Virus record (IMG/VR): IMGVR_UViG_2778261031_000001
Span: 1-9,116 of that record
Length of the DNA stretch: 9,116 nt
Strand: one strand, 5' to 3'
Source: a virus
Lineage: Duplodnaviria; Heunggongvirae; Uroviricota; Caudoviricetes
Part shown: piece after piece, positions 1 to 9,116 of the stretch
Layout of the letters: each line of letters opens with the position of its first letter
How positions within the stretch are numbered: position 1 is the first letter of the stretch
The notes under the pieces: model-generated
The model's database searches: none
The model's input: only the letters and a program-made list of their open reading frames with translations
What the model was told of the DNA's origin: nothing
Made by a program: the position numbers and the translations under genes

Positions 1-110
1 TGCTTCCATCGGAAACGATGATCTGGCAGCCTGAGTTCACAGATAAAACACTCTCCAGGAAACCCGGGGCGGTTCAACTGTGTTGGCTTGCTGTAACTTG
101 CTTGTGTCAT
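1..110 (-). CDS. possible 5' end of a leftward early gene, partial (continues beyond window start)
   Basis: ATG at 110..108 (- strand) opens a frame with no stop through position 1 (MTQASYSKPTQLNRPGFPGECFICELRL...). It lies downstream of cro/nutR where cII or replication genes sit in lambdoid order. RBS is weak and the N-terminus does not resemble lambda CII. Confidence 0.25.
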   Translation of the reverse strand, partial: MTQASYSKPTQLNRPGFPGECFICELRLPDHRFRWK

Positions 111-148
111 TTCTTAATATTTCCAATAGTGAATAGTTAGTTGAAAGG

Positions 149-166
149 TATGCGTGGAAACGCATA
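149..166 (-). promoter_or_regulatory. perfect 7-bp stem / 4-nt loop hairpin between nutR and the next leftward gene (possible tR1-region element)
   Basis: TATGCGT-ggaa-ACGCATA inverted repeat on the + strand; no adjacent T-run, so not a classic intrinsic terminator. Confidence 0.3.
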
Positions 167-213
167 TGGCCTTGGTTGGTCAGATATTCTGGGATTCGCT
201 TTTCAGCGACGTA

Positions 214-241
214 GGACGAATGTCCGTTGTTACAAAGAGCG
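214..241 (-). promoter_or_regulatory. candidate nutR (boxA + boxB) directly after the cro stop
   Basis: - strand reads CGCTCTTTG (boxA-like, 241..233), TAACAAC, then GGACATTCGTCC hairpin (225..214), then TACGT. The same boxA-AACAAC-hairpin-TACGT layout recurs upstream of N at 2946..2973. Confidence 0.45.
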
Positions 242-248
242 GGGTTAC

Positions 249-476
249 TTATGCTGCCAAAAGGTTCTTTTTGCTTATTTCAAGCATTTCGCTTGCTTGA
301 TATTTGCCACCAGAAATCTCTTCGATTTTTGATGCATATTTCGTTTTCCCAAAAAACTCAGTCTTAGGGAGGAAGCCGTTTTTGAGCCACTTATAGACAG
401 CCCTTTCGCTAACTCCACAAGCCTTCGCAACTTCAGGGATGCCGACACCTTTAATCGGCTCATCAAGATTTTGCAT
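249..476 (-). CDS. cro: Cro-like HTH repressor (75 aa if started at 476; the ORF track start at 509 gives 86 aa)
   Basis: Small HTH protein (GIPEVAKACGVSERAVYKWL) divergent from the CI gene. ATG at 476 has SD AAGGA 7 nt upstream and leaves a 78-bp operator region; start at 509 would place the operator palindrome inside the coding sequence. Confidence 0.7.
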   Translation of the reverse strand: MQNLDEPIKGVGIPEVAKACGVSERAVYKWLKNGFLPKTEFFGKTKYASKIEEISGGKYQASEMLEISKKNLLAA

Positions 477-507
477 GTGGATATCCTTTTTCGTACTTTC
501 AGTACGC

Positions 508-535
508 ATTATGATTGAACTGAAAGTTTTTGCAA
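508..535 (-). promoter_or_regulatory. candidate pR (drives cro)
   Basis: - strand -35 TTGCAA (530..535), 16-bp spacer, -10 CATAAT (513..508). The 517..529 operator lies in the spacer and the 493..505 operator covers the predicted start site. Confidence 0.45.
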
Positions 536-541
536 GTGCTT

Positions 542-547
542 TAGTAT
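542..547 (+). promoter_or_regulatory. candidate pRM -10 element giving a leaderless cI transcript
   Basis: TAGTAT sits 7 nt upstream of the cI ATG (555), and no Shine-Dalgarno precedes that ATG, consistent with the leaderless cI mRNA known for lambda pRM. No good -35 (nearest TTGAAC is 21 bp upstream). Confidence 0.3.
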
Positions 548-554
548 CGTACTC

Positions 555-1262
555 ATGGTTCAGAATGAAAAAGTGCGCAAAGAATTCGCCCAGCGGCTAG
601 CGCAAGCCTGTAAAGAAGCTGGTCTTGATGAACATGGTAGGGGAATGGCCATAGCCCGCGCCCTTTCTCTTTCGTCCAAAGGCGTTAGCAAATGGTTTAA
701 CGCTGAGTCTTTACCACGTCAGGAAAAAATGAATGCGCTTGCGAAATTTCTAAACGTTGATGTTGTGTGGCTTCAGCACGGCACTTCGTTAAATGGAGCG
801 AATGATGAAGATACTCTTTCATTTGTTGGCAAATTAAAAAAAGGGTTAGTGCGCGTGGTTGGTGAGGCAATTCTTGGTGTTGATGGTGCCATCGAGATGA
901 CCGAAGAGCGCGATGGGTGGCTCAAGATTTATAGCGATGATCCAGATGCCTTTGGTCTTCGTGTGAAAGGAGACAGCATGTGGCCCAGAATAAAATCAGG
1001 AGAATATGTACTCATTGAGCCTAACACCAAAGTATTCCCGGGTGATGAGGTGTTTGTCAGAACCGTTGAAGGACACAACATGATCAAAGTTCTTGGCTAT
1101 GACAGAGACGGAGAATACCAGTTTACAAGCATCAACCAGGACCATAGGCCAATAACGTTGCCTTATCATCAAGTAGCAAAGGTGGAGTATGTAGCTGGTA
1201 TTCTGAAGCAATCTCGCCATCTGGATGACATCGAGGCAAGGGAGTGGCTGAAAAGTTCGTGA
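555..1262 (+). CDS. cI: CI-type prophage repressor: N-terminal HTH plus C-terminal LexA/S24 autopeptidase domain
   Basis: 235 aa. N-terminal HTH (GMAIARALSLSSKGVSKWFNAESLP); C-terminal GDSMWP serine motif with downstream lysine (HNMIKVLGY) typical of the S24 Ser-Lys dyad; divergent from cro with operators between. Confidence 0.9.
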   Translation: MVQNEKVRKEFAQRLAQACKEAGLDEHGRGMAIARALSLSSKGVSKWFNAESLPRQEKMNALAKFLNVDVVWLQHGTSLNGANDEDTLSFVGKLKKGLVRVVGEAILGVDGAIEMTEERDGWLKIYSDDPDAFGLRVKGDSMWPRIKSGEYVLIEPNTKVFPGDEVFVRTVEGHNMIKVLGYDRDGEYQFTSINQDHRPITLPYHQVAKVEYVAGILKQSRHLDDIEAREWLKSS

Positions 1263-1359
1263 CTTCATCGTCACATAGCTGATAGCCAGTGGCCTGAAGA
1301 GACGTTTGGGTGACAAGAAGCACAGGTATTAACAATAACTTTCATGGTGATACGAATCA

Positions 1360-1902
1360 GTGGCTAAAAAAGGCGACTTTAAGCCTACCCAGAAAGAGGT
1401 TGAACAAGCTATTACTCGCTTGAAAAAAGTAACTTTTAGCGGAGTTACATGGACCGGAAGTGAGGGACGAACCCCAATCTGGTTTAAATTGGATCTCAAA
1501 GCTTTTGATGAAATTGGCAACCCAATCACAGGCATAAGATTTATGCTTCACTGGCGTCCTCCTATCGTTGAAGGGGTGGATATAGTGAAGATTTCATTTG
1601 TGATGTTTCTTCATGACAGGCGCATTTACGCGCTTGACCCGTACCCTGCGGATAACAAGCCACACCGTAATAAATCTATAGTGAACCATCCAGATTTTGT
1701 TGAGGTGGCTCGAGGTCCTCACTATCACATGTACTTCGAATCAGCTGGGGAAGAAATTGCACTTAAGCTTGAAACGAACATCAAGCCAGATGATTTTTTT
1801 GGCTACTGGAATTATTTTTGCGAGGCGCTTAATATCATATATGAAGGCAGCCCACCTTTACCTAATCAAGATAAATCAGGTCAGCTATCATGGGAAATGT
1901 AA
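1360..1902 (+). CDS. uncharacterized protein A (180 aa), first gene of the cassette at the rexAB-equivalent position
   Basis: ORF begins with GTG at 1360 (GGTGA 9 nt upstream); same strand as cI. No transmembrane segment, no recognisable catalytic motif apart from a His-rich patch GPHYHMYFES. Appears lower in GC than the cI and Ea22-like genes. Confidence 0.7.
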   Translation: MAKKGDFKPTQKEVEQAITRLKKVTFSGVTWTGSEGRTPIWFKLDLKAFDEIGNPITGIRFMLHWRPPIVEGVDIVKISFVMFLHDRRIYALDPYPADNKPHRNKSIVNHPDFVEVARGPHYHMYFESAGEEIALKLETNIKPDDFFGYWNYFCEALNIIYEGSPPLPNQDKSGQLSWEM

Positions 1903-2666
1903 CGTGTTCAACAGTCATATCTAAGCTCGGGTTTGAATGCCACCCAATGAGCGACACGTTGCTGCGCGTTATTAGTCCCTTCACATACTACGATGATTGT
2001 GAGCAGATAAGTGTATTCGTTCAAGAGATGAGTGGTCAGTATAGGGTTACAGACTACTGCGATACATTGATGAATATTGAATCACGCGGCATCCACCTGA
2101 CTAAAAAGAAAATTGATCTGATCAGGTCATCACTCGCTTCGCAAGGAATTTCATTAAATGACTCTGGAGAGATATCTGCGTGGGCAGATGAGTCGTCCGT
2201 TGGACAGGTAACTGCAAATGTTATTCGTGGTGGGATTCTTGCATCCGCCCAAACTGCTGATTGGTATGCTGAGGTCAAAGACGATAAGTTCGAAAAATGT
2301 GTAATCAGTTACTTAAAATCAGCAGGGCTTGGGAAGCGACTAGCCTTAAAGGAAAAAGTGAAAGGTATTAGTGGGCATAACATTACTGTTCCGTTAACGC
2401 TAAGGAATGAGTCTCGACTAATACCACCAAAACGCGGGTTTACGGTAAGCCTTGCCAGCAGTAAGGGATGGAATACTGCCCACTCAACAGTTGGGAAGAT
2501 TGTTGACTTAAGTCAGGTCGTTCCTGACATAAACAATAGATTTGTAATAGTTGACAGCGATGGGTTAACACCTGAGCTACAGCAACTATCACTACTATTT
2601 AATGATACCGCACGAGTGTTGCCATTCCATACCAGAGACTCTTGGATTGAGTCTCTGGTAGCCTAG
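1890..2666 (+). CDS. uncharacterized protein B (258 aa; 239 aa if started at ATG 1947), second gene of the cassette
   Basis: ATG 1890 overlaps the stop of protein A (ATGGGAAATGTAA), suggesting translational coupling. Soluble, no family recognised. Followed directly by an intrinsic terminator. Confidence 0.7.
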   Translation: MGNVTCSTVISKLGFECHPMSDTLLRVISPFTYYDDCEQISVFVQEMSGQYRVTDYCDTLMNIESRGIHLTKKKIDLIRSSLASQGISLNDSGEISAWADESSVGQVTANVIRGGILASAQTADWYAEVKDDKFEKCVISYLKSAGLGKRLALKEKVKGISGHNITVPLTLRNESRLIPPKRGFTVSLASSKGWNTAHSTVGKIVDLSQVVPDINNRFVIVDSDGLTPELQQLSLLFNDTARVLPFHTRDSWIESLVA

Positions 2667-2670
2667 AAAA

Positions 2671-2698
2671 ACCCGGCCTCAGCGCCGGGTTTTCTTTG
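2671..2698 (+). terminator. rho-independent terminator ending the cI / accessory cassette unit
   Basis: ACCCGGC-ctcagc-GCCGGGT 7-bp GC-rich stem followed by TTTCTTTG; begins 5 nt after the protein B stop. Position matches lambda tImm. Confidence 0.75.
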
Positions 2699-2856
2699 CC
2701 TCACAGACTTAACAACCGCACATGTGGTAAACCGCAAACCAACACGCCAGCAAAATCATTCTTTCTCCACAACTGACCAGTCTTCAACCTTTACAAAAAT
2801 AAATTTCCTTATATATCAAAATCATATTTCGTAGAGTTAATAAATCACAAAATTTC

Positions 2857-2893
2857 GTACCAATAGTTCTTGATAATGTCGAACTATTAGTTC
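2857..2893. promoter_or_regulatory. oL operators: two 13-bp sites of the same family as oR
   Basis: GTACCAATAGTTC (2857..2869, 1 mismatch) and GAACTATTAGTTC (2881..2893, perfect palindrome); centres 24 bp apart. Confidence 0.55.
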
Positions 2894-2898
2894 ATTAT
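2870..2898 (+). promoter_or_regulatory. candidate pL
   Basis: -35 TTGATA (2870..2875), 17-bp spacer containing the perfect operator palindrome, -10 CATTAT (2893..2898); correctly placed upstream of nutL and N. Confidence 0.5.
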
Positions 2899-2945
2899 TA
2901 TCGCCATCAGCAGGAAGCTGGAAGCCAAACGGAACAGACTGGCAG

Positions 2946-2973
2946 GCTCTTTAAACAACGTCGAACACTCGAC
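2946..2973 (+). promoter_or_regulatory. candidate nutL (boxA + boxB)
   Basis: GCTCTTTAAACAA (close to the rrn/lambdoid boxA consensus) followed by GTCGA-acac-TCGAC hairpin and TACGT, about 120 nt upstream of N. Confidence 0.5.
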
Positions 2974-3089
2974 TACGTGGCTGAAAAGCCAGATCACCCA
3001 ACCACATAAGCTGTGGGATGCAATGCCGAAGCAACCGTCTCAGGAGGGGCTTCGAGATTGCATCGCCAAAGTTTATTCGGGAGGAATCT

Positions 3090-3362
3090 ATGTCCAGAAA
3101 AACAGAATTTAAAGGAACCGCAGCTTCTCGCCGTAGAGCTCGTCGTGCAAATCTGCAAAGTCAGGAGGCGATCAGCTCCGACAAGCTACACAGGCCAACC
3201 CCTTCACGAGTGGTCTTGCAATGCAAGCGCAAACCAGCAATGAGAGCAGAAGTGATAACTCTGACAACGTTGACCAGAAAATATGAAGGTTCAACTTGTC
3301 TTCCGAACGTAGCCATTTACGCGGCAGGCTATCGGAAATCAAAACAACTGACGGCGAGATGA
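3090..3362 (+). CDS. N: N-type transcription antiterminator, P22 gp24-like (90 aa)
   Basis: Arg-rich N-terminal motif (TAASRRRARRANLQ); C-terminus LPNVAIYAAGYRKSKQLTAR closely resembles the P22 gp24 C-terminus as I recall it. Strong RBS GGGAGG 5 nt before ATG 3090. The track's 3018 start is an unsupported upstream extension. Confidence 0.85.
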   Translation: MSRKTEFKGTAASRRRARRANLQSQEAISSDKLHRPTPSRVVLQCKRKPAMRAEVITLTTLTRKYEGSTCLPNVAIYAAGYRKSKQLTAR

Positions 3363-3426
3363 CTTGTGTTGGTCGCCAGAAGCAACGCGGAAAATCAATT
3401 CCAGCTTATTACGATTGAGGTGAGCC

Positions 3427-3564
3427 ATGCTCAAGAAAGTCAAACGCCGACTTTACAAAGAAGGTAGATATTCATGCCAGTTGCCAAAATGCGACACAAC
3501 AAAATGGAGTGTCGATGATTGGTGTAACTGGATAGATAGATACGGAACTTGGTGGGATAAATAA
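3427..3564 (+). CDS. small Cys/Trp-rich protein (45 aa), below the ORF-track length cutoff
   Basis: ATG 3427 preceded by TTGAGGTGAG (3415..3424). Translation MLKKVKRRLYKEGRYSCQLPKCDTTKWSVDDWCNWIDRYGTWWDK; the same 10-mer precedes the next gene. Confidence 0.4.
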   Translation: MLKKVKRRLYKEGRYSCQLPKCDTTKWSVDDWCNWIDRYGTWWDK

Positions 3565-3618
3565 CAGGTAACTTAAGCGTATTTACTTTCGCAGCAAACC
3601 AATTATTTGAGGTGAGAT

Positions 3619-4089
3619 ATGACAAAATCATGGAGCGTACCTTTTCCTGAATCAGAAACTGAACATGAGGGAATGCCTGTTTTCTGGAGATTCCAGGAGA
3701 CAGTTGAAGAAGATGGAATCAAAATATTCGCACTTCAATATATAGCTTTTCATCAGACAGAGCATTATGCATGGTTGGTTCCTGCGCATTGGATTGTTAA
3801 TTTTAAACCAACACCAAATCAGTGGTTACAGGAATGGAAACAAAAGAGAAATAGATATGCAATTAAGAAAGTAGCAAAAAATGCAGAAAGATCTTTTGCA
3901 TTCCCAACGAAGAAACTTGCCATTGAAAGTTTATTGCGCCGGAAGAAATACCATTTAATGATAATCAAACAAGATTTGGCTGTTGTATCAACTCTTGTTG
4001 ATGGGATGAAGAATATTGATACATCAACACCAGATATTGAATATAACTTTGGACACAACCAAGAAACAGAAAACTGGGTGTTTTATTAG
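3619..4089 (+). CDS. uncharacterized AT-rich accessory protein (156 aa)
   Basis: ATG 3619 preceded by TTGAGGTGAG (3607..3616). Markedly AT-rich compared with neighbours. Sits between N and cIII, the lambda ral/sieB/ea10 neighbourhood. Confidence 0.75.
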   Translation: MTKSWSVPFPESETEHEGMPVFWRFQETVEEDGIKIFALQYIAFHQTEHYAWLVPAHWIVNFKPTPNQWLQEWKQKRNRYAIKKVAKNAERSFAFPTKKLAIESLLRRKKYHLMIIKQDLAVVSTLVDGMKNIDTSTPDIEYNFGHNQETENWVFY

Positions 4090-4103
4090 TACGAATAAGC
4101 ACT

Positions 4104-4131
4104 GTGTATTCATTCCAACGAGTGAATACAC
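4104..4131 (+). promoter_or_regulatory. perfect 9-bp stem / 10-nt loop inverted repeat after the AT-rich gene
   Basis: GTGTATTCA-ttccaacgag-TGAATACAC; no T-run follows, so an RNA structure or protein-binding site rather than an intrinsic terminator. Confidence 0.3.
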
Positions 4132-4193
4132 GGAGCAATGTCGCTCGTAACTAAACAGGAGCCGACTTGTTCTGATTATTGGAAATCTTCTTT

Positions 4194-4217
4194 GCCCTCC
4201 AGTGTGAGGGCCTTTTT
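4194..4217 (+). terminator. rho-independent terminator inside the pL operon (tL-like)
   Basis: GCCCTC-cagtgtg-GAGGGC stem-loop followed by CTTTTT. Confidence 0.6.
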
Positions 4218-4279
4218 ATATGCATACCAATAACGCTTCACTAGAGGCGTTTTCGTTATGTATAAATAAGGAGCACACC

Positions 4280-4420
4280 ATGCAATATGCCATTGCAGGG
4301 TGGCCTGTTGCTGGCTGCCCTTCCGAATCTTTACTTGAACGAATCACCCGTAAATTACGTGACGGATGGAAACGCCTTATCGACATACTTAATCAGCCAG
4401 GAGTTCCCAAAAATGGATAA
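4280..4420 (+). CDS. cIII: CIII (protease inhibitor protecting CII), 46 aa
   Basis: MQYAIAGWPVAGCPSESLLERITRKLRDGWKRLIDILNQPGVPKNG matches lambda CIII as I recall it, minus the last ~8 residues. Strong RBS AAGGAG 6 nt before ATG 4280; the track's 4220 start is an unsupported extension. Confidence 0.85.
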   Translation: MQYAIAGWPVAGCPSESLLERITRKLRDGWKRLIDILNQPGVPKNG

Positions 4421-4526
4421 AACACTTATGGCTATCCAGACTAAATTCACTATCGCCACTTTTATTGGCGATGAAAAGATGTTTCGTGAGGCCATCGAAG
4501 CCTACAGAAAATGGAGGTCAAAATGA
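4413..4526 (+). CDS. kil: Kil-like host cell-division inhibitor (37 aa)
   Basis: MDKTLMAIQTKFTIATFIGDEKMFREAIEAYRKWRSK resembles lambda Kil from memory; immediately downstream of cIII as in lambda; SD AGGAG 9 nt upstream. Start overlaps the cIII 3' end by 8 nt. Confidence 0.75.
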   Translation: MDKTLMAIQTKFTIATFIGDEKMFREAIEAYRKWRSK

Positions 4527-4711
4527 TTCCGGTAGAACTGGCGAAAACTCCAGAATTAAGTCGATTAAAAAGAGAATATCACATTGCTGAGGCTCGTTAC
4601 TGGCGTAAAGCGGGAGATAAATCAAAGAAACAACTTTGTTTATGGCAGGCTCAAAGAGAGCGCATGAATGAGCGCGAGTTTCTTTCCTCCCCATCCGAAC
4701 TACCATTCTGA
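4523..4711 (+). CDS. hypothetical protein (62 aa)
   Basis: ATG 4523 overlaps the kil stop (ATGA) with GGAGG 5 nt upstream. Basic, helical-looking; no family recognised. Confidence 0.6.
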   Translation: MIPVELAKTPELSRLKREYHIAEARYWRKAGDKSKKQLCLWQAQRERMNEREFLSSPSELPF

Positions 4712-4719
4712 GGCAAATT

Positions 4720-5400
4720 ATGGGAACTGCGACATTAATACTCGGTGAGTCTGGCACCGGAAAATCAACCAGCATGAGAAATATCAATCCCGAGGAAGCA
4801 ATACTTATAAAACCAATAGGCAAGCCGCTACCATTTAAATCAAAAGAATGGCTGGCATGGGATGCCAGAGCAAAAAAAGGAACCGTAGTTACCACTGACA
4901 AATGGGACGTAATAGTTGCCGTAATTAAGCGTGCTCACGAATACGGGAAAAGAATCGTTATTGTTGATGACTTCCAGTATGTGATGAGCAATGAGTTTAT
5001 GCGCCGCTCAGAAGAAAAATCGTTTGATAAATTTACTGAGATAGGCCGCCACGCATGGGAGGTGATTAAGGCTGCACAGGATGCACCTGATGACCTGAGA
5101 GTCTATTTTCTTGCACACACCGAAGAAACCCCTATGGGGCGCGTGAAAATGAAAACTATCGGCAAAATGCTGGACGAGAAAATCACTGTCGAAGGCATGT
5201 TTACTATAGTTCTTCGCACCCTTACCCGTGATGACCAGTTCTTTTTCACCACAAAAAACAACGGTGCAGACACTGTTAAATCCCCAATGGGAATGTTTGA
5301 CTCCAATGAGATTGATAACGATCTCTCTTTCGTCGATGCCACTGTTTGTGATTACTACGGCATCAATAATGTTCATCAAATTAAGGAAAACGCCGCATGA
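4720..5400 (+). CDS. P-loop NTPase, possibly Sak4-like (RecA/Rad51-core) recombination ATPase, 226 aa
   Basis: Walker A GESGTGKST near the N-terminus and Walker B RIVIVDDF. Size and position (where lambda has gam-bet-exo) are consistent with a Sak4/AAA_24-type protein; the family call is from memory. Confidence 0.8.
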   Translation: MGTATLILGESGTGKSTSMRNINPEEAILIKPIGKPLPFKSKEWLAWDARAKKGTVVTTDKWDVIVAVIKRAHEYGKRIVIVDDFQYVMSNEFMRRSEEKSFDKFTEIGRHAWEVIKAAQDAPDDLRVYFLAHTEETPMGRVKMKTIGKMLDEKITVEGMFTIVLRTLTRDDQFFFTTKNNGADTVKSPMGMFDSNEIDNDLSFVDATVCDYYGINNVHQIKENAA

Positions 5401-5984
5401 GCAACGTAATTTTTACTTATAACGAAGAAGCAGCACTGACCGCAGGGCAAGGTGGTTTTATTAACGAAACTGGCGCTCATATCATTACCATTACTGAAGC
5501 AGAACTAAAGCAATCAGAAAAAGGAGCCAAATTTATTGAGTTTTCTGGCGAATCCGACGACGGACGTAAAATCCAATATCTTAGCGTCTGTGTTCAGAAA
5601 AATGACGGAACGGAAAATAAATTTGGCGCAAATGTCGTCCACGCCATGATGGGGTGTGCCGGGATTGGACAATTAACGCAACATATGGTTTCCGCCAGTA
5701 AATTTGTTGCTCCTGAATTTCATGGAAAGAAAATCGGGTTAGTGCTCCAGAAAGTATTAACCACAAACAAAAAGACTGGCGCAGACAGCTACCAGATGGA
5801 AATACGCATCCCGTTTATTGCACAAACAGGTCAAACCCTTAAAGAAAAGGCGGAAGGCAAGCAACCAGAAACTATCGCCAACATGGTTGCCAGCCTCAAA
5901 GATAAAGACAATCGCTCTAAAAACGTAAGCCAGAATCATGCAGATGATTATGGTTACAGCCAGAACGATTACCCTCCTTTCTGA
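5397..5984 (+). CDS. hypothetical protein (195 aa), possible ssDNA-binding partner of the ATPase
   Basis: ATGA overlap with the ATPase gene. C-terminal tail ...DDYGYSQNDYPPF is reminiscent of the acidic ...DDDIPF SSB tail; Sak4-type genes are typically adjacent to an SSB-like gene. Function is inference only. Confidence 0.75.
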   Translation: MSNVIFTYNEEAALTAGQGGFINETGAHIITITEAELKQSEKGAKFIEFSGESDDGRKIQYLSVCVQKNDGTENKFGANVVHAMMGCAGIGQLTQHMVSASKFVAPEFHGKKIGLVLQKVLTTNKKTGADSYQMEIRIPFIAQTGQTLKEKAEGKQPETIANMVASLKDKDNRSKNVSQNHADDYGYSQNDYPPF

Positions 5985-6007
5985 TTACTGAAAATAAGGC
6001 TCCCATT

Positions 6008-6301
6008 ATGCCAGCGCCTCAGTATGGTGCGGATGACCCGCGCCGCTGTTCCGGCAATTCCGTGTCGGAGGTGCTGGATAAATTCAGAAAAAACTACGAT
6101 CGGATAATGTCGCTACCGCAGGAAACGAAAAAGGAAAAGGAATTTCGCCACTGTATATGGCTTGCAGAGAAAGAAGAACGCGAGCGAATTTACCAGACAT
6201 CAATCCGACCATTCCGCAAAGCCACATATACCCACTTCCCTGAAATTGACCCGCGCCTGCGTAATTACCGCTCACGCTATGGCGCTATCAGTAATGACTG
6301 A
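6008..6301 (+). CDS. hypothetical protein (97 aa)
   Basis: ATG 6008 with TAAGG 8 nt upstream; co-oriented in the early-left operon. Confidence 0.65.
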
Positions 6302-6311
6302 GGAATTTACC

Positions 6312-6476
6312 ATGAGAGGACTTGCATACAATCCCGGCATTCTTCCGGCAGAAATGATTATTCGCCAACGCGTAAAGCCAATGCCATCGAGAGAGGAACT
6401 GCTTAAGAGAAATTCTTTTCCATCAGTAAATCAAAACAAATATCTGAATGTGGTGTGGCGGAGTGGGAAGAAATGA
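6312..6476 (+). CDS. hypothetical small protein (54 aa)
   Basis: ATG 6312 with GAGGA 7 nt upstream; its stop overlaps the next start (ATGA at 6473). The track's longer 6162 start overlaps the previous gene. Confidence 0.5.
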
Positions 6477-7069
6477 AACAAATGTCACTAATTGAGATGG
6501 ATGGATTTCTGAAAGGTAAATGCATCCCACGAGATTTAAAAGTTAACGAAACAAACGCTGAATATCTGGTGCGTAAGTTCGGTGAACTTGAATCAAAACT
6601 AGAAACGGCGTTGCGGGAGTGTCGTTCTGCTGGAATAACGATTGACAACCTTGAGGCTAAGTGTGCGGCGCTGGATGCTGATAACAAGAAAGCAATGGAG
6701 GCAATGAGGCAGGCAGATGCAGCCGTTAAGTTGGCACACGAGAAGTTTTCTGCGCTGGCGGCGGAGAATGCGAGACTGAAATCTGCGCCCCCTCAACCAT
6801 TCGGACCTGAGATGATGAAGGCTCTTGATGCGTATGAGAAGTATCAGGATGAAGTGCCGGAGACTGGGATGCTCAATGCATTTTTCATCTTGCGCGACAG
6901 TATCCGTGTTGACACCCCAGCCACCGACGCATTCCTGGCTGAAGTACGGGCGCAGGGCGTGGAGATGGCTATGGAGCATATGCAGTCGAGCGGCTCGTTA
7001 ACATTTGGAGATTGCTACATATCACTTAACGAGTTCGTCGCAGAGCTTCGCAAAGGAGGCAACCAGTGA
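6473..7069 (+). CDS. hypothetical coiled-coil protein (198 aa)
   Basis: ATGA coupling at 6473; Ala/Glu/Lys-rich central region ([44 protein letters not shown]) suggests coiled coil. The track's GTG 6455 start lies in the upstream gene. Confidence 0.7.
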
Positions 7070-7290
7070 GCGGAAAAAGAATGACTAACAGAGAGCTTGT
7101 CGATGCCGCGATTAAGCTTGCTGGTGACTTTTATTCAATGATGGGGTACGCGCATCGCCCTGGATTCAAATATTGGGAGTCGCCTCACCCGCAAGAGCAA
7201 CTGGTATTTCAAATGGCCTGCCGTGCTTTTGAGGTTATTCGCGGTTCTGATGTGATGGACGCCGTTGCCGACTTGGAGGATGAAGAGTGA
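7066..7290 (+). CDS. hypothetical protein (74 aa)
   Basis: GTG 7066 overlapping the previous stop (GTGA), preceded by AAGGAGG with 6-nt spacing. Confidence 0.7.
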   Translation: MSGKRMTNRELVDAAIKLAGDFYSMMGYAHRPGFKYWESPHPQEQLVFQMACRAFEVIRGSDVMDAVADLEDEE

Positions 7291-7781
7291 CCCAAATTAA
7301 CTATCAGGCGCTGCGTGAAGCGGCGGAGAAGGCCACGGCGCTCAATCTTGATACCGCTCAAGTGAAGCGCGGGAATGATGGATATCTTGAATGCCCATGC
7401 TGTGAGGGCGCTGGCTACGTGGAAGAGGAAAGCGACTTCTGCAATATCGACGGCGTGGCGCTCGGCGTTCAGTTCTACGGCATTGGCGAGCATTACGGAT
7501 TGGCTGAGTCATATCTCAGAGCAGCCAACCCCGCAACCGTTCTGGCGCTGCTGGATGAGCTGGATAAGTGGCAACAGGAATCATCAGCGTGGCAGGCGGT
7601 TGCGGAGAAGCAACTGGCTTTGGCGGCAGATGCAGAGAAGCGCATCGCTGAACTGGAAGAGAGGAAGGTTGTGCCGGATGAAATGACGCCAAAGCAAGCG
7701 TCGCGCTCATATTGCGGAGAAGTTAGAGGGTATCGTGATGGATGGAACGCCTGCCGTGCTGCCATGCTTCAGGGTGCCTAA
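7287..7781 (+). CDS. Ead/Ea22-like family protein (164 aa)
   Basis: GTG 7287 in GTGA overlap with GGAGGA upstream. Features recalled from Ead/Ea22-like prophage proteins: N-terminal ...QALREAAEKA..., CPCCEG Cys cluster, ...LLDELDKWQQE... segment. Confidence 0.75.
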   Translation: MTQINYQALREAAEKATALNLDTAQVKRGNDGYLECPCCEGAGYVEEESDFCNIDGVALGVQFYGIGEHYGLAESYLRAANPATVLALLDELDKWQQESSAWQAVAEKQLALAADAEKRIAELEERKVVPDEMTPKQASRSYCGEVRGYRDGWNACRAAMLQGA

Positions 7782-7853
7782 CCTGTAAGCCAAACTTACA
7801 AGTTGCCTCCCCTGTCATCCAACGAAGTAAACGACGCGGCATGGAAATTACAC

Positions 7854-8153
7854 AACATGCTGACTGAACACGGCCCGCTAAATGGGCGTCAGTTCAACAA
7901 TCTGAAAGGTTGCTTCTATGAGGCATTAAAGGTCGCAATGCGCAACTCTCCGGTAACTCCGGATGGTTGGATAAGCTGTAGTGAGCGAATGCCCGCTCAA
8001 GATGATTGGATTTTAATTTATTCAAAGCACGGCGAGTATATGGCAGGACAGGGACAAGGGGAATACGTGGAGTTGAGCGACGGCACTTTATCGTGGTTAG
8101 GGAACGCCTTGTACTGGATGCCGCTACCAGAACCGCCGCAGGAGGCGAAATGA
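7854..8153 (+). CDS. DUF551-like prophage protein (99 aa from ATG 7854; track ORF begins at TTG 7803)
   Basis: C-terminal ...WMPLPEPP... matches the DUF551 signature as I remember it. Start is uncertain: neither TTG 7803 nor ATG 7854 has a clear SD. Confidence 0.7.
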   Translation, partial: NMLTEHGPLNGRQFNNLKGCFYEALKVAMRNSPVTPDGWISCSERMPAQDDWILIYSKHGEYMAGQGQGEYVELSDGTLSWLGNALYWMPLPEPPQEAK

Positions 8154-8431
8154 TGGACTCCTTCGCGAAATATACGATTATTGACTGGATAGCCTTCCTT
8201 CAGGTTTTGCTCATCTGGTTTTATATGGCTTACAGGAGTGGACAGTGGATTGTCAGTGTAGCCTGTAGCAAGGGATGGCGTTGGTGGAACCGAAAGAATA
8301 AAAAAGCACTGGCCTTGGATTCGTTTTACGAAGCATTCAATCTTAACAGCCTTCAGCCTGGTTCTGTCATTGTAGTCACCACTCAAAGTGGCATGACCAT
8401 TCAGATTCATAAACCAAAAGAGGAAAAATGA
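8150..8431 (+). CDS. small predicted membrane protein (93 aa, one TM helix)
   Basis: ATG 8150 with GGAGG 5 nt upstream, overlapping the previous stop. Hydrophobic stretch YTIIDWIAFLQVLLIWFYMAY near the N-terminus. The track's 8006 start is an in-frame extension inside the upstream gene. Confidence 0.65.
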   Translation: MMDSFAKYTIIDWIAFLQVLLIWFYMAYRSGQWIVSVACSKGWRWWNRKNKKALALDSFYEAFNLNSLQPGSVIVVTTQSGMTIQIHKPKEEK

Positions 8432-8517
8432 TGTGGCTTATATGTGTTAATTGCGGACGGATGTGCCTATCTGGATGGTGCCGAAAGTGCGACAAATGCA
8501 CGAAGCAAAGACAATAA
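8428..8517 (+). CDS. possible Cys-rich micro-protein (29 aa)
   Basis: ATGA overlap with the upstream stop, GAGGAAAA just upstream. Translation MMWLICVNCGRMCLSGWCRKCDKCTKQRQ has 7 Cys in 29 residues; a terminator follows. Confidence 0.35.
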   Translation: MMWLICVNCGRMCLSGWCRKCDKCTKQRQ

Positions 8518-8551
8518 CAATCCTCGCACTCGCGGGGATTTCTTTTATCTG

Positions 8552-8576
8552 AACTCGCTACTGCGAGTTTTGTTTT
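8552..8576 (+). terminator. rho-independent terminator
   Basis: AACTCGC-tact-GCGAGTT stem-loop followed by TTGTTTT. Confidence 0.55.
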
Positions 8577-8588
8577 ATGGAGATGATT

Positions 8589-8888
8589 ATGGCCTGTTCA
8601 ACATTCAACCCTTTAACGTTACAGAAATACCAGCCAGACCCTGAAGATTTATGCTCACTGTGTGGCGGAGATCATGGTAAAGCCGCCATGATCGAATGTA
8701 AGGACAAAATCCACATATGCCTTGATTGCGTTGATGTCCTCGTTGATATCAAAAATGAAAGAGAAGATAAAAAGCGTAGCGAGGCTATTCGCGCCTTAGA
8801 TTCATGGATGCGAGATGGGTATAGTGCTGCGCAAATTTATGACTTAGCCATTTCAAAAGGCGAAATACCAGGTGTGCGAATCGAATAA
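8589..8888 (+). CDS. hypothetical protein with paired CxxC motifs (99 aa from ATG 8589)
   Basis: Three in-frame ATGs (8577, 8583, 8589); GGAG lies 6 nt before 8589. Contains CSLCGG ... CLDC, a zinc-ribbon-like spacing. Confidence 0.7.
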   Translation: MACSTFNPLTLQKYQPDPEDLCSLCGGDHGKAAMIECKDKIHICLDCVDVLVDIKNEREDKKRSEAIRALDSWMRDGYSAAQIYDLAISKGEIPGVRIE

Positions 8889-8923
8889 GAAGCGCACTCA
8901 AGCATCTTTTGGGGAAATCACAA

Positions 8924-9091
8924 ATGCACTTCCGAGTCACAGGTGAATGGAATGGAGAGCCATTCAACAGAGTTATCGAATCGGAGAACATCAACGACTG
9001 CTATGACCACTGGATGCTGTGGGCGCAGATAGCACATGCAGACATAACCGATATTCGAATTGAAGAACTGAAAGAACACCAAGCCGCCTGA
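8924..9091 (+). CDS. hypothetical small protein (55 aa from ATG 8924; track ORF starts at TTG 8909)
   Basis: GGGGAA 7 nt upstream of ATG 8924; followed immediately by a terminator. Confidence 0.55.
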   Translation: MHFRVTGEWNGEPFNRVIESENINDCYDHWMLWAQIAHADITDIRIEELKEHQAA

Positions 9092-9103
9092 TGGCGGTTT
9101 TTT
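9084..9103 (+). terminator. rho-independent terminator overlapping the stop of the last gene
   Basis: CCGCC-tgat-GGCGG stem-loop followed by TTTTTT. Confidence 0.6.
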
Positions 9104-9116
9104 CTTGCGTGTAATT

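Follow-up and report, generated by a model that had tools for sequence, protein, structure and literature searches.

The operators of the Shiga-toxin phage 933W have reportedly been the subject of work by Koudelka et al. (2004), Tyler et al. (2004), and Bullwinkle and Koudelka (2011). The phage carries five natural operators, OR1 to OR3 and OL1 and OL2, each of which comprises 15 bp arranged with rotational symmetry about a central pair (Bullwinkle et al. 2012, PMC3317979). Positions 4 and 5 of these operators are invariant, the central pair is A-T, only one OR2 half-site is without G-C at position 2, and position 6 is occupied by T in 7 of the 10 half-sites and by C in the other 3 (PMC3317979). 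The same laboratory has published that 933W has no OL3 (PMC3317979 and a later paper), and its later papers, in which the footprints are restated, report that 933W CI binds all five operators. OR1 is the strongest site, bound at approximately 0.3 nM and approximately 10-fold more tightly than a designed consensus (PMC3317979), and OR2 and OR3 are weaker than OR1 and similar to each other in affinity. Activation of the 933W promoter pRM requires CI at OR2, occupancy of OR3 represses this promoter, and full repression takes only approximately 4-fold more repressor than maximal activation. In 933W lysogens, the cI transcript is 10- to 30-fold less abundant than in lambda and 434 lysogens, the repressor concentration is significantly lower, and the prophage is easily induced.

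A second Stx phage, BAA2326, resembles 933W in having a three-site OR, in filling OR2 and OR3 at similar repressor concentrations, and in displaying strong pRM self-repression and a "hair-trigger" induction (PMC5977221). Its repressor, however, is unrelated in sequence to 933W CI (19% identity; PMC4848623), and the same outcome is reached through cooperative OR1-OR2 binding, unlike in 933W (PMC5977221).

This study analyzed a 9,116-nucleotide stretch of viral DNA (IMG/VR record IMGVR_UViG_2778261031_000001, positions 1 to 9,116), hereafter the window, in which a preliminary description had recognized a family of inverted repeats at the positions expected of lambda-like repressor operators. Almost certainly, the window contains a lambdoid prophage immunity region of the 933W type, with the repeats being its OR1-3 and OL1-2, to which CI binds without cooperativity.

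Identity with the 933W immunity region

Direct reading of the sequence confirmed that five 13-bp inverted repeats are present at the positions given in the preliminary description (Table 1). The functional operator in the literature is the 15-bp sequence composed of the 13-bp repeat and one additional base on each side, and both forms are listed. The OR sites span 69 bp between cro and cI, and the OL sites span 37 bp upstream of an N-like gene; the names OL1 and OL2 are our reading of the lambda convention.

Between positions 78 and 2918, the window is approximately 96% identical to the immunity region of 933W and of many Stx phages, with a gap at which the cargo differs, and the homology resumes at tM after the exchanged cargo. 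OR1, OR2, and OR3 agree base for base, and with the same spacing, with the 15-mers that GenBank record AF125520 of 933W labels oR1, oR2, and oR3. The arrangement of two OL sites without an OL3, as in 933W, was also found in the window. A search of the 150 bp upstream of OL2 revealed no third OL site, the best matrix score being 5.9 versus 12.5 to 18.9 for the operators, and the matrix scan detected no additional sites beside OR.

Table 1. Coordinates of operators, promoters, genes, and terminator in the window
Feature	Position	Strand	Sequence or elements	933W counterpart or basis
cro	249-476	-	ATG at 476; AGGA Shine-Dalgarno 7 nt upstream	75/75 aa identical to 933W Cro (AAD25431)
OR1	492-506 (15-bp operator); 493-505 (13-bp repeat); centre 499		Operator CGTACTTTCAGTACG, perfect palindrome; repeat GTACTTTCAGTAC, perfect	Equals 933W "operator oR1"
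pR (predicted)	508-535	-	-35 TTGCAA 535-530; 16-nt spacer; -10 CATAAT 513-508	Sigma-70 consensus scan; position of 933W "pR putative"
OR2	516-530 (15-bp operator); 517-529 (13-bp repeat); centre 523		Operator TGAACTGAAAGTTTT; repeat GAACTGAAAGTTT, 1 mismatch	Equals 933W "operator oR2"
pRM (putative, weak)	520-547	+	-35 CTGAAA 520-525; -10 TAGTAT 542-547	Transferred from 933W GenBank "pM"
OR3	548-562 (15-bp operator); 549-561 (13-bp repeat); centre 555		Operator CGTACTCATGGTTCA; repeat GTACTCATGGTTC, 1 mismatch	Equals 933W "operator oR3"
cI repressor gene	555-1262	+	Pfam HTH_3 and Peptidase_S24 (HTH domain, S24 autopeptidase domain)	235/235 aa identical to 933W CI (AAD25430)
Cargo ORF, 180 aa	1360-1902	+
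Cargo ORF, 258 aa	1890-2666	+
tM, cI operon terminator	2672-2693	+	CCCGGC-CTCAGC-GCCGGG followed by TTTT	Identical to 933W "tM" feature
OL2	2856-2870 (15-bp operator); 2857-2869 (13-bp repeat); centre 2863		Operator CGTACCAATAGTTCT; repeat GTACCAATAGTTC, 1 mismatch	Identical to 933W
pL (predicted)	2870-2898	+	-35 TTGATA 2870-2875; 17-nt spacer; -10 CATTAT 2893-2898	Sigma-70 consensus scan
OL1	2880-2894 (15-bp operator); 2881-2893 (13-bp repeat); centre 2887		Operator CGAACTATTAGTTCA; repeat GAACTATTAGTTC, perfect	14/15 bases equal to 933W
N antiterminator ORF, 90 aa	3090-3362		Begins MSRKTEFKGTAASRRRARRANL	Pfam N_peptide, E = 8e-32

We then compared the ten half-sites of the window with the published description. 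A at position 4 and C at position 5 are invariant, G occupies position 2 in all but a single OR2 half-site, position 3 is W, and the central pair is A-T. OL2 carries T and C at positions 3 and 6, respectively, in agreement with the description of OL2 in PMC3317979. Position 6 is T in 8 half-sites and C in 2, owing to base 2889 in OL1. Because the half-sites reproduce all of the statistics in PMC3317979 when this OL1 difference is allowed for, the five sites of that paper are these five. The proposal that the repeats are repressor operators was thereby borne out: they coincide with the annotated oR1-3 of 933W and fit all of the stated properties of the five footprinted and measured operators of an identical repressor. 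No observation contradicted this assignment.

The window and 933W share CI, Cro, OR1, OR2, OR3, OL2, tM, and the promoter hexamers, together with the spacings of 24 and 32 bp in OR and 24 bp in OL. They differ in OL1 base 2889, in the inter-operator bases 507 and 514, and in the stretch that separates the cro Shine-Dalgarno sequence from its ATG, and other sequences take the place of the 933W cargo (between cI and tM) and of its nutL/N module (downstream of pL). The operator set is already known; it consists of the characterized repressor sites of 933W, here located on a related prophage.

Operator spacing and repressor binding

A centre-to-centre distance of 24 bp between adjacent sites had been reported and taken to imply cooperative CI binding. 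The distance was reproduced for OR1-OR2 and OL2-OL1, but that between OR2 and OR3 measured 32 bp. In a lambda-style cooperative switch, CI dimers 24 bp apart would touch through their C-terminal domains, OR1 and OR2, as well as OL1 and OL2, would fill together, and looping between OL and OR would help OR3. The spacing of both pairs, which equals that of lambda, and the two-domain HTH and S24 architecture shared by CI speak for such a switch, but the published measurements contradict it. For the identical protein and OR DNA, OR1, OR2, and OR3 had relative KD values of 1, 10.3, and 15 on separate fragments and 1, 13.6, and 26.4 in the intact OR; because OR2 is bound equally well as an isolated site and in the intact OR, an occupied OR1 provides no help. 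By comparison, the relative KD of lambda OR2 falls from 75 when isolated to 2 in the intact OR. The authors of the 933W measurements concluded that the repressor is unable to bind adjacent sites cooperatively, and simulations without cooperativity from the Koudelka laboratory match regulation in vivo. The title of a cited paper assigns the 933W OL-OR loop no role in pRM control, whereas lambda CI both binds cooperatively and forms loops. Considering also that OL3 is absent and that this type of switch has already been tested and rejected for 933W, we regard it as very unlikely at this locus.

Non-cooperative operators of the 933W type are the preferred reading. Binding, affinities, non-cooperativity, and the activation and repression of pRM are carried over to the window from experiments on identical CI and identical OR DNA, and would be expected to hold by analogy; binding has been published for the identical OL2 sequence as well.

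Enrichment of the operators over chance

The exact pattern G(A/T)ACT-N3-AGT(A/T)C occurred twice in the whole window, versus 0.03 matches expected. When up to one mismatch was allowed, 6 matches were found in the whole window versus 0.54 expected, a count reached in 0 of 200 shuffles, and 5 of the 6 fell in two short intergenic clusters. The core defined in the literature, GWAC-N5-GTWC, yielded 5 matches in the window versus 0.34 expected, 4 of which are operators. In a leave-one-out test, in which the half-site matrix was derived from the remaining four sites, every operator ranked 2nd to 7th among 9,102 positions.

A genome-wide scan for the motif had been suggested as a check of whether it is confined to these two loci. 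Strict confinement did not hold, although the entire excess over chance resides there. The complete 933W genome (61.7 kb), scanned at up to one mismatch, contains the five operators and five matches elsewhere, compared with approximately 3.7 expected. The sixth match in the window (9065-9077, GAACTGAAAGAAC) lies inside an ORF and was taken as a chance occurrence, approximately 0.5 such matches being expected per window; a core-pattern match at 8102-8114 was likewise taken as chance. The 15-mer at 9064-9078 (AGAACTGAAAGAACA) is the top operator-like sequence outside OR and OL, with a matrix score of 10.6 versus 12.5 for OR2.

These counts also bear on whether the repeats could be chance palindromes in AT-rich intergenic DNA with no binding function. 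Matches at up to one mismatch do occur elsewhere at approximately the chance rate, both at 9065-9077 and in 933W. At that density, however, only 0.004 matches would be expected in the 69-bp OR span and 0.002 in the 37-bp OL span, where the five sites lie, and no shuffle equaled the observed count. The sites are moreover placed exactly on elements of pR, pRM, and pL, and binding to the same sequences has been measured for 933W, leaving a chance origin with a negligible probability.

A role of the OR1 palindrome as an RNA hairpin or intrinsic terminator, rather than as a protein-binding site, is hardly credible: a scan flagged 492-506 on the + strand (6-bp stem, 3-nt loop, and T-rich tail), but it returned 2 such sites versus 2.4 expected by chance, the stem contains only 3 G-C pairs, the same symmetry recurs in the four other sites without a T tail, and a terminator here would block pRE-driven cI expression.

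Promoters and the cI start

We examined the positions of the operators relative to the promoters by using a sigma-70 consensus scan and the 933W annotation. Three placements made previously were upheld. OR1 lies over the pR start, covering approximately -5 to +10 of the predicted promoter, and OR2 fills the spacer of predicted pR, both according to the consensus scan and the 933W annotation; OL1 fills the spacer of predicted pL according to the consensus scan. OL2 adjoins the pL -35 element on its upstream side. The putative pRM matches the consensus at 8 of 12 positions and remains under the scan threshold.

OR3 had been described as lying over both the pRM -10 element and the cI ATG. The ATG, the A of which is the OR3 centre, is covered together with the start point, but the putative -10 is adjoined rather than covered by the 15-bp operator. 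The suggested autoregulation through OR3 agrees with the literature, in which repression of pRM via OR3 is published for 933W.

No Shine-Dalgarno sequence for cI was found in the 20 nt upstream of its ATG. Because the putative pRM -10 stops 7 nt short of the A of this ATG and no Shine-Dalgarno sequence accompanies it, the cI mRNA from pRM is predicted to be leaderless or nearly so, judging from the arrangement of these elements. A literature search found no statement on a leaderless 933W cI; such statements were found for lambda cI and for paaR2 of the cryptic prophage CP-933P.

The entire putative pRM -35 element lies under OR2, the centre of which would be located at approximately -32, one helical turn closer than the -42 of lambda, if transcription starts at or just before the ATG. 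Activation from this position is not obviously expected, which is a caveat to the best explanation. TAGTAT is the only plausible -10 element for cI and leaves no space for a leader. If it is used, a dimer bound to OR2 at approximately -32 covers the pRM -35, and stimulation could then not rely on a lambda-style contact with sigma region 4 at -35. There is consequently an outside chance that pRM activation in the 933W immunity type differs from that of lambda. Activation of pRM from the OR2 position is the sole part of the locus where something undescribed might remain.

A longer reading of cro with 86 aa (249-509) was considered and rejected. Its additional in-frame ATG (509-507) lies inside the pR -10 element and upstream of the transcript, and the extension is therefore an artefact. 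This ATG is due to base 507, which is C in the window and T in 933W; the same C occurs in several related contigs.

Variation of the operators among relatives

OL1 is the only operator in which the window departs from 933W. Base 2889 (position 6') is A in the window and G in 933W, and the A renders the palindrome of OL1 perfect. OL1 position 6' is G in all 41 IMG/VR contigs that carry this oL, and the exact oL had no match in species-representative genomes. The A variant and the downstream sequence of the window also occur in a prophage of E. coli MS 196-1, which was isolated from the human colon, and the variant is therefore a sublineage marker rather than a sequencing error.

The 933W work allows the effect of this base to be predicted. 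Binding is weakened by the consensus bases at positions 3 and 6, and exchanging the consensus T-A at position 6 of both half-sites for C-G improves it more than 2.5-fold (PMC3317979). On the basis of these position-6 data, and contrary to a reading based on the consensus, the "perfect" OL1 of the window is predicted to bind CI slightly more weakly than 933W OL1, by up to approximately 2-fold, the prediction being transferred by analogy.

We also assessed variation at oR in a gapped comparison, confined to oR, of 12 haplotypes from 40 related loci that had been chosen by their oL. In the interval from the cro Shine-Dalgarno sequence to the cI ATG, the 12 haplotypes showed substitutions only at positions 500, 507, and 514, in addition to a 1-bp indel in the T-run to the left of OR1. 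Position 500 corresponds to OR1 position 7', which is not contacted by the repressor, and is substituted in one contig, and positions 507 and 514 both lie between OR1 and OR2. At the low diversity of these haplotypes, the substitution pattern would be compatible with constraint on the operators.

One related contig (L034, IMGVR_UViG_2585427768_000008) retains an OR of the 933W type and Cro up to residue 33, beyond which an unrelated reading frame follows; this suggests a recombination or rearrangement breakpoint inside cro.

Cargo slot and N module

Two overlapping ORFs on the + strand occupy the slot between the cI stop (1262) and tM (Table 1). This slot contains rexAB in lambda and L0084-L0083-stk-L0081 in 933W. 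The Pfam matches of the two ORFs were DUF6978 (weak, below the cut-off) and DUF1828, and PADLOC weakly matched each of the two components of PDC-M24, a candidate two-gene defence system (A, E = 4e-4; B, E = 5e-7). At a coverage of at least 80%, the cassette was found in 61 complete E. coli genomes and in no deposited phage record. Among 41 viral contigs with the same oL, the distance from OR3 to OL2 fell into approximately 13 length classes ranging from 1588 to 3051 bp, indicating that the slot exchanges its cargo very frequently.

Homology to 933W stops approximately 25 bp downstream of the pL -10 element (approximately position 2918), beyond which the nutL/N module is different. The N antiterminator ORF in this region yielded no alignment to the 933W N region. 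Because the flanks differ, the window is a mosaic in which a 933W immunity cassette lies between other modules.

Comparison with lambda

The locus was described previously as lambda-like in its geometry, a characterization that proved accurate for the 24-bp spacing but not for the number of OL sites, the OR2-OR3 spacing, or the positions of the sites relative to pRM. In both lambda and the window, OR comprises three sites and lies between the divergent cI and cro genes, and an OL-controlled pL lies downstream of a cI-linked cargo slot and a terminator. The OR1-OR2 and OL1-OL2 pairs are 24 bp apart in both (lambda centres 38006/37982 and 35599/35623). The two systems also share negative autoregulation through OR3 and a cI gene that lacks a Shine-Dalgarno sequence and begins just after the -10 element.

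The differences concern the operators themselves and their placement. Lambda operators comprise 17 bp of another sequence, whereas those of the window comprise 15 bp. The lambda OL contains three sites spaced 24 and 20 bp apart, whereas that of the window contains two, and the OR2-OR3 distance is 23 bp in lambda compared with 32 bp in the window. Measured upstream from the cI ATG, which in lambda is the pRM start, the centres of OR3, OR2, and OR1 lie at 19, 42, and 66 bp in lambda but at 0, 32, and 56 bp in the window. Relative to lambda, the OR array of the window is shifted toward cI by approximately one helical turn for OR1 and OR2 and by approximately two for OR3.

Discussion

The 933W experiments suggest how the switch of this prophage would operate. 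Each operator would be a 15-bp, two-fold symmetric site (N-G-W-A-C-T/C-N, the central pair, and the mirror image) to which one CI dimer attaches by means of its helix-turn-helix domain. Occupation of OR1 and OR2 by CI would block pR, and that of OL1 and OL2 would block pL. CI at OR2 would stimulate the weak pRM, and CI at OR3, which lies on the cI start point, would turn pRM off. The dimers would not help one another, whether they are bound side by side or brought together by an OL-OR loop that acts on pRM. Occupancy would instead be set by intrinsic affinity alone, in the order OR1, OR2, and OR3, with OR2 and OR3 near each other. As a result of the close affinities of OR2 and OR3, pRM would be partly self-repressed, the repressor concentration low, and the prophage easily induced. 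Cro probably uses the same operators and, by analogy, would be expected to prefer OR3, and the one-base variant of OL1 presumably still binds CI.

The operator finding is a rediscovery of a well-characterized non-lambda switch, and the operators themselves provide no new biology. It nevertheless demonstrates that a complete and correct operator set can be recovered from raw sequence alone. It also marks the limit of arguments from geometry: a lambda-like spacing of 24 bp is no guarantee that binding is cooperative, nor need a "perfect" palindrome be the operator that is bound most tightly. The finding places the prophage in the 933W immunity group, in which low repressor concentrations and easy induction underlie the release of Shiga toxin in Stx-carrying relatives.
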